DNA of 64,000 nucleotides from a virus (Duplodnaviria; Heunggongvirae; Uroviricota; Caudoviricetes): positions 171,468-235,467 of IMG/VR virus record IMGVR_UViG_3300014204_000107, one strand, 5' to 3'. This document shows, one piece after another, positions 7,099 through 9,862 of this stretch. The notes under the pieces were generated by a model. It searched no databases. It saw only the letters and a list, made by a program, of their open reading frames with translations, and had not been told where the DNA came from. Position numbers and translations under genes: made by a program. Positions within the stretch are counted from its first letter, which is position 1, and the number at the start of each line of letters is the position of its first letter.

Positions 7099-7308
7099 AT
7101 GAATAAAGCAGAATTAAAGCAATTGATAAAAGAAGAAGTTAGAAATGTGGTCAATGAATCATTTGATTCAGATATTTCATACCTTGAAGATAAATTAAGA
7201 CCGCTTGATTCTGAACAACAAGCTCGATTAATATGGATGTGGATAAAGCAAGATCATATTAATTTTAAACAATTTATTCAATTAGTTAAGTATTTAACGC
7301 GTGATTAA
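7099..7308 (+). CDS. Small protein with KQLIKEE leader (putative internal head protein)
   Basis: AGGAG RBS; starts MNKAELKQLIKEEVRNVVNE. Confidence 0.75.
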   Translation: MNKAELKQLIKEEVRNVVNESFDSDISYLEDKLRPLDSEQQARLIWMWIKQDHINFKQFIQLVKYLTRD

Positions 7309-7657
7309 TGAAGTTTTAAATATCAATGAATTAGCATTTAAGCAAGATGTTATTAGTGCCGGTGGTAAGATCTATAGCGTTGGTGGAAAGGTTCGTGATG
7401 AATTTTTAGGAAAAGAATCAAAAGATTTGGATATTCTTATAACTGGCATACCGTTTGATGAATTAGAGAAAATATTAAAGAAATATGGCAGTGTTAATAG
7501 CGTAGGTAAATCATTTGGTATTATAAAATTTAAGCAGTTCGGCGACACCGAAGAAGTGGATATCGCCATACCAAGAAAAGAATCGAGAAAAATTTATGCA
7601 TTCGTGATAAAACAACATCAACCTCCTATATATATTAAATATGGAGGTAAATTATGA
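7301..7657 (+). CDS. cca: tRNA nucleotidyltransferase (CCA-adding, class II), N-terminal fragment
   Basis: VGGKVRD...KDLD catalytic motif and DIAIPRKE; homology ends at the flexible loop. Confidence 0.85.
   Translation: MINEVLNINELAFKQDVISAGGKIYSVGGKVRDEFLGKESKDLDILITGIPFDELEKILKKYGSVNSVGKSFGIIKFKQFGDTEEVDIAIPRKESRKIYAFVIKQHQPPIYIKYGGKL
7621..7648 (+). promoter_or_regulatory. Hairpin occluding the endonuclease RBS
   Basis: ACCTCC (7621-7626) pairs with the SD GGAGGT (7643-7648), 5 nt before ATG 7654; contains a TATATATATTA promoter-like motif. Confidence 0.7.
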
Positions 7658-8553
7658 AGCATGGTACTTTAAAATGTCATATATGTGATCAAGAAATTGT
7701 TATAGTTGGAATTGGCTCCCATTATAAATGGAAACATAGAATGCTATTGAGAAAAGATCCAACTAATTATTTAGATTTTTTTAATTATAATTATCCAAAT
7801 TTAATTGATGATATTATTAAAGAATGTAATGAAAAAAAGATGTCAGCAAATCAATTAATAAAACGTAAATATAAATATATTGGTCCTGGATTAGGGTTGT
7901 TTTTAAGTAAATTATTAAAAGATAAAATAAAAATTACTGCGATGGACATGGATATCCATCGATTGAAACAACGAGATGCTACGTGCATTGAAAAACATGG
8001 CAAAATATATTCAGACGGATACACAAATAGGATAGCAAATTTTAAAAAAGACCCGGATTTTGCTAGAAAAGTAAGCTTATCTGGTTGGTCTGGCGAATTG
8101 GGTGATAAACGAAGAAAAAAAGAATCAGATAAATTTAAATCAGATGATTTTAAATTAAAAAGAATTCAAACATTGATAGATAAATATGGCACTCAATATG
8201 TGGGTGGTACATCAAATTTTCATAAACGAGTTAAATCTTTGCTAGAGAAACATAATATTATTACTGAATCTGAATGTGTAGTCAAAGGAACCGGATATAT
8301 TGCCGACGAAATTGACCATACACATAATATAGTTATAGAAATGAACGGTGACTTTTGGCATGCAAATCCAACTAAATTTGATTCTGATTTTGTAAATCCA
8401 ATTAACCATATGATAGCGAAAGATGTTTGGAAATATGATAAAAAAAGAAAAAAAATAATTGAAAAAAATGGATATTCTGTGTTTATAATATGGGAATCCG
8501 ACAACATTAATGAAAAAATAGAAGAATACAAGAGAATTTATGGCATTATTTGA
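7654..8553 (+). CDS. Free-standing homing endonuclease (Zn finger + Vsr/DUF559-like PD-(D/E)xK domain)
   Basis: CHIC...HYKWKH zinc finger; ADE...IEMNGDFWH...IWE nuclease motif; overlaps both cca halves. Confidence 0.8.
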   Translation: MKHGTLKCHICDQEIVIVGIGSHYKWKHRMLLRKDPTNYLDFFNYNYPNLIDDIIKECNEKKMSANQLIKRKYKYIGPGLGLFLSKLLKDKIKITAMDMDIHRLKQRDATCIEKHGKIYSDGYTNRIANFKKDPDFARKVSLSGWSGELGDKRRKKESDKFKSDDFKLKRIQTLIDKYGTQYVGGTSNFHKRVKSLLEKHNIITESECVVKGTGYIADEIDHTHNIVIEMNGDFWHANPTKFDSDFVNPINHMIAKDVWKYDKKRKKIIEKNGYSVFIIWESDNINEKIEEYKRIYGII

Positions 8554-9544
8554 TAATATACCAAATAATATAAAGATTGTAGATGATACTATCTATGGAG
8601 AAATAGATGATATTATGGGATATTTATCTAGATTTGGAACTGTAGAACTTGAATATACAGGTGGATATCAAGGATTTGAAGTTACATCTGATCACAATTT
8701 GCCAATAGAAAAGGATTTAGAACGTCGAGACTTTACAATTAATTCCATTGCAAAAGATGCAGAAGGTAATATAGTTGATCCATACGGCGGATTAATAGAC
8801 TTACAGAATAAAGTTATTAGAGTTACTAATCCAATAGCATTTTCCGAAGACCCATTAAGAATGCTTCGTGCAGTACAATTTGCTGCGCGATTTGATTTTA
8901 AGATAGAACCTAAAACATTGCAATTAATAAAAGAAAATGCACCTAAAATAAAAGAAATATCAGCAGAACGCATATTAATTGAATTTGAAAAAATTGTACA
9001 CAAAGGAGACCCAGTAGTTGGTATATATTGGTTAGATAAAACATTATTATTTAGCAATATATTTGATATACCATTTAATGGCAAATATAGTGACTTTCAA
9101 GATGTAGCAAATATAGCAGAATTTATATATTGTTGTTTAAAGAATACTGATATAATTATATCGGAATTTTTTAAAAATAAGATTCGGGGCAGTATTGAAG
9201 GAACAAAAAATGTTGAATCGTTAGAATATATAAGAAAATTAACAGATAATATTGTACATAATAGAGCTATTGCATCAATAATGTATAATAAATATCCAGA
9301 TATTGTTAATAGTGAACTTTTGCCAAATGCATTAAAAGATATATTTAATAGTTTTCGAGCAGAGCAATATCCAAGTGGTATTAATAAGTTAGATATAACA
9401 GGTAATGATATAATGCAATTAGGATTGAAAGGCAAACAAGTTGGTGATGCATTAAAATTAGCATTATTATCTATTTACAGCAATAAATTAAAAAATAGTA
9501 AGAATGATATTTTAAAATTTGTTGAAAATCTAAAATTGCCATAA
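8540..9544 (+). CDS. cca: tRNA nucleotidyltransferase (CCA-adding), C-terminal fragment
   Basis: DLERRDFTINSIA, DPYGG..DL, FSEDPLRMLRAVQFAARF, ISAERI, ITGNDIM motifs. Confidence 0.88.
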   Translation: MALFDNIPNNIKIVDDTIYGEIDDIMGYLSRFGTVELEYTGGYQGFEVTSDHNLPIEKDLERRDFTINSIAKDAEGNIVDPYGGLIDLQNKVIRVTNPIAFSEDPLRMLRAVQFAARFDFKIEPKTLQLIKENAPKIKEISAERILIEFEKIVHKGDPVVGIYWLDKTLLFSNIFDIPFNGKYSDFQDVANIAEFIYCCLKNTDIIISEFFKNKIRGSIEGTKNVESLEYIRKLTDNIVHNRAIASIMYNKYPDIVNSELLPNALKDIFNSFRAEQYPSGINKLDITGNDIMQLGLKGKQVGDALKLALLSIYSNKLKNSKNDILKFVENLKLP

Positions 9545-9571: not shown

Positions 9572-9862
9572 ATGACGGATAAACAGTTAAAGCAATTAAT
9601 AAAAGAGGAAGTTAAGTTAGTTCTTGAAGATAGACGCGCCGAGATTGATGCAATTGTCAAATTAGACCATGCATTGGCAAGTGCTAAACAAGTAACTTTA
9701 CGAAATCAAGTATTAAAAGAATTATTTTATAGTAAAATAATAGCATTGCAAACGGAAATAGATGATTATTTATTTAAAGTGAACAATACACAACCAACAC
9801 AACTGGGTGCATTGCAAAATGATAGCCCAACCGCACGTGTGCAGTCATACAAATGGAAATAA
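9572..9862 (+). CDS. Small protein with KQLIKEE leader
   Basis: GGAG RBS; MTDKQLKQLIKEEVKLVLE. Confidence 0.72.
   Translation: MTDKQLKQLIKEEVKLVLEDRRAEIDAIVKLDHALASAKQVTLRNQVLKELFYSKIIALQTEIDDYLFKVNNTQPTQLGALQNDSPTARVQSYKWK

Follow-up and report, generated by a model that had tools for sequence, protein, structure and literature searches.

The gene for the class II CCA-adding enzyme (tRNA nucleotidyltransferase) of a jumbo phage was found to be broken in two by the gene of a free-standing homing endonuclease. The window, by which we mean the whole stretch of 64,000 nt that was analysed, corresponds to G000:C1:171468-235467 of a 299,351-bp viral record (IMG/VR record IMGVR_UViG_3300014204_000107; Caudoviricetes) that has direct terminal repeats and an estimated completeness of 100%. 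We consider it likely that a free-standing homing-endonuclease cassette fractured the CCA gene, that neither RNA nor protein splicing repairs the break, and that the two halves probably reassemble non-covalently. This account is carried by an exact measurement of the interruption against intact relatives, by the recurrence of the same cassette at the same codon position in an unrelated phage, and by the conservation of both halves across diverged split alleles.

Anatomy of the interrupted CCA gene

The locus lies in a region of ~28% G+C and consists of three open reading frames (ORFs) arranged head to tail on the plus strand. The first, cca-N (7301-7657, +; 118 aa, GTG start), is an N-terminal fragment of a class II CCA-adding enzyme that matches PF01743 positions 1-72 and whose start agrees with that of the intact relative P0002 (MITEVVNIN...). 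The second (7654-8553, +) encodes the 299-aa free-standing homing endonuclease in a frame different from that of the CCA halves, and the third, cca-C (8540-9544, +; 334 aa), returns to the frame of cca-N and supplies the rest of the head domain, the neck and the body (PF01743 positions 86-126 plus PF12627). The stop of cca-N overlaps the start of the endonuclease gene by 4 nt (ATGA), and the end of the endonuclease gene overlaps the start of cca-C by 14 nt. These coordinates and Pfam matches confirm an initial annotation of the stretch that had described a CCA gene split by a 299-aa endonuclease overlapping both same-frame halves.

The head motifs of class II CCA-adding enzymes and the neck (PF12627) are all present, but are spread over two ORFs. 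Motif A (GGKVRD...DLD) and the BxA motif (PRKE, i.e. R-K-E) both lie on cca-N and are followed there by a cassette-derived tail of 23-24 aa; cca-C opens with a cassette-derived N-terminal extension of 37-39 aa and then holds the loop residues GGYQGF (GGYQGFEV), motif B RRD (RRDFTIN) and EDPLR. Measured against intact relatives, these additions agree with the ~24 and ~38 aa of extra terminal sequence noted initially. The locus encodes no one-chain enzyme whose loop runs unbroken from BxA to motif B, and across the whole genome PF01743 matches only cca-N and cca-C, with no second PF01743 gene.

The closest relative, the intact P0002 (389 aa; 62% identity across the aligned part of the C-half), is continuous across the break site (...DIALPRTEKKTDAGYQGFEV), as is the intact L004 (...PRTERKNDQGGYQGF), and the interruption could therefore be measured as exactly 1065 nt (355 codons), lying between ~7586-7591 and 8651-8656. 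The mobile cassette was accordingly placed at 7586-8650 (+), with each boundary uncertain by at most 6 nt, on the basis of P0002, L004 and 15 further intact target sites, which are the kind of uninterrupted alleles that the initial annotation had suggested looking for. Furthermore, more than 100 relatives are single polypeptides of ~390 aa with a continuous chain at the break site, and a profile built from 111 intact relatives aligns at positions 3-95 with cca-N and at positions 92-388 with cca-C. The break falls 1-3 residues past BxA (RKE) and ahead of motif B (RRD), in a segment that is the flexible-loop region by experimental definition (PMC2910056), where it had been placed from the start.

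Uninterrupted forms of the domain also occur in larger frames: in L004 the CCA domain stands at the end of a 987-aa ORF, and in seven related jumbo-phage contigs (L189, L190, L191, L192, L194, L196 and L202) it sits within stop-free frames of 1,200-2,560 codons, which may be giant multidomain or polyprotein-like ORFs.

A Vsr-like endonuclease predicted between the halves

The endonuclease is composed of an N-terminal finger-like motif (C-x2-C...H-x4-H), a helical region and a C-terminal Vsr-like nuclease domain (residues ~188-299). Pfam returned weak C-terminal matches to MTES_1575 and DUF559 in the 299-aa protein, and a profile of five family members matched E. coli Vsr weakly (E ~0.2), with GxFWH and WE(S/C) in register. 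An AlphaFold2 (AF2) model reached a mean predicted local distance difference test (pLDDT) score of 67, rising to ~80-88 in the C-terminal domain, and a Foldseek search with this model retrieved the catalytic domain of I-Bth0305I (3r3p; probability 1.00, target-normalised template modelling score 0.59-0.69) as well as Vsr itself (1cw0 and 1vsr; probability 0.99), with weak E-values (~0.01).

The five-sequence family alignment shows no variation at D218, E229, F234-W235-H236 and D262. Counted from Vsr H69, they correspond to D51 (D218), position 62 (E229), F67-W68-H69 (F-W-H) and roughly D97 (D262), with E229 and F-W-H inside the aligned stretch and the correspondences of D218 and D262 resting on spacing. 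A glutamate at Vsr position 62 is specific to the homing lineage (PMC2677866). On the strength of the model and this register, the endonuclease is predicted to have a Vsr/I-Bth0305I-type nuclease fold with conserved catalytic residues; its initial assignment as a Vsr-type free-standing homing endonuclease is thus upheld by the fold match, and likewise by a second phage in which this cassette occupies the same site. Neither Pfam nor PHROG gave a match to a NUMOD in the protein, and the N-terminal Cys2-His2-like motif and helices are modelled at low confidence. Full-length relatives are rare (L012, 40% identical; P0122-P0124, 43-46%; overall range 40-47%), and the nuclease domain by itself is common in phage and giant-virus contigs.

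The same genome contains, outside the window, a second Vsr-like ORF (L208:478-1746, equivalent to G000:C1:240256-241524), whose 422 aa combine zinc-ribbon repeats with this same nuclease domain of Vsr-like type (IIEVYGDYWHCNP...VLWERD). This solitary ORF splits no gene and is followed by a GIY-YIG-like ORF (MGYVYLIEAS...IYKIGYT) at L208:2129-2437.

Recurrence of the split and an endonuclease-free fused allele

Scans of viral, metagenome and genome contigs yielded one further split locus, L012, along with many unrelated carriers of the nuclease domain. L012 is an unrelated 120-kb phage contig (L011 and L013-L015 are identical copies) in which the cassette layout recurs at the same codon position. 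The N-half there ends in ...PRTEKA followed, past the break, by KKQIVVTLGQNDIFIEYNDSMNERELKG; the next ORF is a homologous endonuclease of 331 aa, 40% identical to ours; and its C-half starts with MDKKKILQLLELNGFNVINGVVYNKPENIISFLNKTIKPTKIKNL, after which the core resumes at AGHKGF. The ORFs overlap by 23 nt and 8 nt, and in both DNA loci the ATG of cca-C is embedded in the Tyr-Gly codons of the endonuclease C-terminus (tATGG). By inference from sequence, P0123 and P0124, which end in ...KYGY*, would in the shifted frame read MDI(N/K), in agreement with the start of P0003 (MDIN...).

Protein databases contributed five further split C-halves (P0003, P0015, P0034, P0025 and P0241) and one further N-half (P0142). 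The loci found together with P0003 (L187-L203) are uninterrupted without exception. The N-terminal extension of our C-half (MALFDNIPNNIKIVDDTIYGEIDDIMGYLSRFGTVELE; 8540-8653, +) contains the conserved motif hYGxxxEIxxYLxxxGxV, and a homologous extension is present in at least four lineages of split C-halves. Shuffle tests supported this homology for our extension against those of P0003 (p = 0.0003) and L012 (p = 0.003) and for P0003 against P0015 (p = 0.006), and the motif is likewise carried by P0241 and by P0148, described below.

A comparison of extensions with adjoining cores revealed a mosaic of identities. The first 47 aa of the C-half, including the whole 45-aa extension, are 100% identical between P0025 and L012, with adjoining cores at 50-77%; across the P0025/L012 clade, extensions are 78-89% identical and cores 53-69%. 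Because the extension is more alike than the core, it belongs to the mobile unit that moved between diverged CCA alleles, and the mosaic is, as far as sequence can tell, a signature of homing.

An exhaustive profile search with the extension and the adjacent core recovered P0148, a single continuous ORF of 778 aa on a 202-kb contig, named tRNA nucleotidyltransferase at its source. Its order is ...EEIDIAIPRTEK, then the N-tail-like QQNKLSIVYKGEEITIQYNETDSS..., a linker of ~14 residues, the C-extension-like ...YFINVLADSGFNVIDNVVYAPFEKIKSFLEGNLGVTKVKKL and SGYQNFDVKSDH..., so that the flexible loop holds an 84-aa insert in which both tails are joined in frame, without an endonuclease. Both tails are therefore protein-coding and able to sit in one chain, and the allele shows that the insert must have its two ends brought together at adjacent beta-strands of the head domain.

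Cassette-derived tails and a predicted regulatory hairpin

The N-tail (SRKIYAFVIKQHQPPIYIKYGGKL; 7586-7657, +) is not found in intact relatives, shows homology with its counterparts in L012 and P0142 (shuffle p = 0.006), and has a second role as the endonuclease gene's 5′ regulatory region. An RNA hairpin predicted at 7594-7664 (+) would hide the Shine-Dalgarno (SD) sequence and AUG of that gene: the SD GGAGGU (7643-7648) pairs with ACCUCC (7621-7626), and the AUG (7654-7656) is buried. The fold has a ΔG of -18.3 kcal/mol (z = -3.07), and 1 of 200 shuffled sequences folds as well. Hairpins that sequester the SD and AUG are a regulatory device described for free-standing phage endonucleases (PMC2677866). 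A promoter-like motif in the hairpin loop (TATATATATTAAATA) was set aside, as its 10 occurrences in the window against 6.3 expected show no enrichment.

In the AF2 model of cca-C (pLDDT 88.8 overall), the C-terminal half's extension is predicted, at a pLDDT below 50, as strand-strand-helix-strand. Searching Pfam with the tails alone gave no match. An origin of the tails as diverged duplicates of the adjoining exon, a tandem duplication that MAFFT had suggested, was rejected (shuffle p = 0.07-0.99; hhalign probability 4.5%), and the profile hidden Markov model of the 111 intact enzymes likewise gave no consistent or significant match; in these comparisons the weak best matches fall on the enzyme's C-terminal helix in some lineages and on the head helix in others. 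The same fate befell the faint echo of DELEKILKKYGSV that the initial annotation had seen in the new N-terminus: it does not rise above chance in shuffles (p = 0.26-0.29), and in a profile test (per-sequence P ~0.03) the registers are inconsistent between lineages. Look-alikes of the P0148 insert in the ESM Atlas were also discarded, the best score (0.82) being at chance level.

Proposed mechanism and activity of the split enzyme

We propose that a 1065-nt mobile cassette inserted into the phage's single CCA gene, 1-3 codons past BxA, where the flexible loop begins. It would have brought a 5′ leader with a hairpin sequestering the ribosome-binding site and AUG, the gene of a free-standing Vsr-like (I-Bth0305I-type) homing endonuclease, and a 3′ segment providing a new start codon and a leader peptide of ~38 aa, with the result that cca-N, the endonuclease gene and cca-C now form three overlapping, probably translationally coupled ORFs. 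The endonuclease would cleave CCA alleles that lack the cassette, its target being the conserved PRTEK/GGYQGF-coding site, and would spread by repair-mediated copying; the shared insertion site in two phages and the mosaic of identities between cassette and host gene lend indirect support to such site-specific cleavage and homing.

Neither fragment has the full active site: motif A and BxA reside on cca-N, whereas cca-C holds the tRNA-binding body together with the loop residues and motifs B to E. The two proteins would associate non-covalently and rebuild one active site, each contributing the elements that it encodes. The cassette-derived tails probably aid this assembly, as they do in NrdA-a/NrdA-b of phage Aeh1.

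Of the competing explanations, the one that survives best is that the fractured gene is dead, its fragments being non-functional remnants and the host's CCA enzyme sufficing. Most bacteria do have a CCA enzyme of their own, a break within the catalytic head domain could abolish folding, and homing may be recent enough for decay to be still invisible. However, all split alleles retain open frames, with full-length ORFs in seven distinct split C-halves (ours, L012, P0003, P0015, P0034, P0025 and P0241) and three N-halves. Moreover, the split C-halves included in a 62-sequence alignment, which left out P0241, keep every family-invariant column (6/6: ours, P0003, P0015, P0034, P0025 and L012), and GGxVRD and DLD are intact in 3/3 N-halves, despite cores that have diverged to 33-69% identity. 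The embedding of the start codon and the ORF overlaps are conserved between both loci, and between P0003 and P0241 the extension is 46% identical, equal to or above the cores (41%). We consider a dead gene improbable on these grounds; open frames and invariant residues kept in spite of divergence argue for a working, non-covalently reassembled enzyme, and the comparison of alleles makes it likely that the split CCA enzyme is of this kind.

The tRNA complement of the phage bears on the demand for such an enzyme. The genome encodes 38 tRNA genes and a tmRNA-like gene (151393-151770), located at G000:C1:35407-40577 and 145447-156454, all outside the window. CCA occurs at the expected position after the discriminator base in 0 of the 38 tRNA genes, and a looser test (CCA straddling the predicted gene end) is passed by 3; judged from these sequences, a genomic need for CCA addition is plausible. 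In class II enzymes, foreign loops abolish A-addition and leave C-addition intact (PMC2910056). By analogy, a shift of the split enzyme to CC-adding, which the initial annotation had suggested, is conceivable; the sequence data favour neither outcome.

More tentatively, and with doubt outweighing confidence, the two tails could together form a single small fold, contiguous in the 84-aa insert of P0148, and act as a portable clasp that closes the fractured CCA catalytic head again by non-covalent contact. If so, the cassette would carry its own repair kit and could invade an active-site domain without killing the enzyme; and with the clasp at the anchor of the A-addition lever, nucleotide specificity may change (CC-only or altered A addition).

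Several points weigh against the account given here. Its whole DNA-level basis consists of two independent loci, ours and L012. Our extension is 13-22% identical to the other extensions, and it scores below 50 in pLDDT in the AF2 monomer of cca-C, so that AF2 gives no folded interaction module or clasp. The likeness among N-tails may reflect a regulatory constraint on the DNA and not peptide function, because part of that sequence is the SD/anti-SD hairpin here, the PP and GG codons of the N-tail being the anti-SD and SD in this phage. Finally, two histories are possible: a loop insert was there first and the endonuclease entered it, or the endonuclease was lost and left P0148 as a scar.

Evidence against splicing

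A group I or other self-splicing intron would loop out the endonuclease ORF and give a spliced mRNA for a single CCA polypeptide. In keeping with this, the halves share a frame, the length of the insert is divisible by 3, the endonuclease ORF has flanks of ~68 nt and ~97 nt, and Vsr-like endonucleases are known in phage group I introns, e.g. in recA of phage 0305phi8-36 (PMC2677866, PMC3239194). Nevertheless, a cmscan search with all Rfam families (E <= 10) found none in 7200-9000 or in the equivalent stretch of L012, and a whole-genome search with RF00028 gave no match at the locus, in a setting where the same model recovered all three ORF-bearing T4 introns (105, 40 and 36 bits). The three ORFs overlap, so no non-coding core remains, and the 3′ flank that becomes the C-half extension, where P7-P9 would be expected, folds no better than shuffled sequence (z = -1.1 in ours, +0.46 in L012). 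All but one of the hand-enumerated in-frame 5′-U/3′-G splice pairs near the junction give rise to a stop codon, and the exception yields a 10-aa loop. Furthermore, at least four lineages conserve the extension at the peptide level, and P0148 has it as an in-frame part of its protein. An intron is very improbable in light of these results, as the initial annotation had argued; its proposed search with group I models was negative at the locus and positive for the T4 introns. Elsewhere in the genome, outside the window, a weak Intron_gpI match was recorded at G000:C1:6966-7136 (17.5 bits, E = 0.006, below the gathering score).

The HINT domain of inteins has a minimum length of roughly 130 aa, and the tails add up to ~62 aa in our phage and to 84 aa in the fused form of P0148. 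That they are split mini-intein halves ligating the CCA fragments by trans-splicing (a 'fractured gene' sensu Dassa et al.) is the least credible explanation of all, even though the order of gene half, free-standing Vsr-like endonuclease and gene half is that of 26 fractured-gene loci (PMC2677866) and the beta-hairpin-like pattern of the N-tail loosely recalls intein block A: no Pfam Hint or intein match appeared even at E <= 10, the junction residues are not conserved nucleophiles (first tail residue S/K/I, +1 residue T/T/A), and a terminal Asn or His-Asn is lacking, in line with the initial view that no intein is present.

Comparison with known systems

With splicing set aside, the non-covalently reassembled split enzyme that we favour belongs to an established class. 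To our knowledge, genes split by a homing endonuclease gene and rescued without splicing amount to a handful of cases (Aeh1 nrdA, T4-like gp43 and one SbcD-like metagenomic locus). At the CCA locus, as in other genes in pieces, a homing endonuclease gene lies between ordered halves, and cassette-borne tails are absent from intact homologues.

The nearest parallel is nrdA-a/mobE/nrdA-b of Aeromonas phage Aeh1, in which the split NrdA depends for its activity on the tails introduced by the mobE insertion (PMC3045599; cited in PMC2677866). The initial annotation had drawn this analogy, and the essential role of the Aeh1 tails makes it closer than was claimed. In both systems short C- and N-terminal tails arrived with the insertion, and neither RNA nor protein splicing is involved. 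Unlike Aeh1, with its HNH endonuclease and ribonucleotide reductase, the present case combines a Vsr-like endonuclease with a tRNA nucleotidyltransferase; its break lies inside a beta-sheet catalytic domain at a mobile loop, and it is known from sequence alone.

An SbcD-like gene without an intein, fractured by a Vsr-like endonuclease, was described from a GOS Lake Gatun metagenomic locus (PMC2677866). It shares with ours the endonuclease class, the three-ORF layout and the lack of a flanking intein, and extra residues at the break that intact homologues lack (there 25 aa on the upstream ORF and 9 aa on the downstream ORF). The CCA locus differs in its host gene, in a longer downstream extension (37-46 aa) that is conserved in several lineages, and in having tails that are known also in a form fused in frame without an endonuclease (P0148).

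I-Bth0305I is the prototype of the EDxHD/Vsr-like homing endonuclease family (PDB 3R3P, PMC3239194). Our endonuclease resembles it in a C-terminal nuclease domain of the same predicted fold, with the catalytic Asp/Glu/His/Asp and the intercalating Phe-Trp in register, and may also share a DNA-binding region N-terminal to this domain. In contrast, I-Bth0305I is encoded inside a recA group I intron and has NUMOD-2/HTH (helix-turn-helix) motifs, whereas ours is free-standing and begins with C-x2-C...H-x4-H, and the two have no detectable sequence similarity beyond the nuclease core. The separate CC-adding and A-adding enzymes (e.g. of Aquifex; PMC2910056, PMC7014341) also use two polypeptides for CCA synthesis, and the flexible loop is again concerned; however, those are two complete paralogues with divided activities, whereas here one enzyme is cut in two and no fragment has a complete active site.

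A full-text literature search combining 'CCA-adding enzyme' and 'homing endonuclease' returned no report of this split, judged on the titles and abstracts of the papers found, in which neither term appears. The class of mechanism is already known; the host gene, the recurrence in multiple lineages and the fused allele are new. The locus adds a host enzyme to the known cases and makes the case a recurrent one (two DNA loci, at least four extension lineages and one endonuclease-free fused allele). For the study of tRNA nucleotidyltransferases, it provides a naturally occurring enzyme severed at the beginning of the flexible loop, which governs the switch from C to A, and hence a system in which the importance of an unbroken loop can be tested as it stands. 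Protein engineering could draw on the conserved tails as candidate small heterodimerisation peptides.

Associated domains and neighbouring genes

The CCA enzymes of several split or fused alleles are joined to further domains. In members of the L012 clade, the fusion partner is a domain containing two H-x-T-x motifs (HHMTITMG and PHVTLAV; L012:3265-3650 and the C-terminal part of P0003), a pair typical of 2H phosphoesterases, and P0015, P0034 and P0148 have a C-terminal PF10307-type domain. These fusions suggest a tRNA 3′-end repair module. Directly downstream of the split cca gene in L012, on the minus strand (L012:6026-7030), a 334-aa ORF contains two LAGLIDADG-like motifs (LGLLLSDGYI and FVRGVFDGDGSI) and would, from these motifs, be a second homing-endonuclease-like gene at that locus.

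Small ORFs flank the cca locus in the window (7099-7308 and 9572-9862). Together with a third near the second Vsr-like endonuclease ORF (L208:1802-2035), they have a near-identical N-terminal peptide (..ELKQLIKEEV[RK]..), which may be a common leader or targeting sequence.

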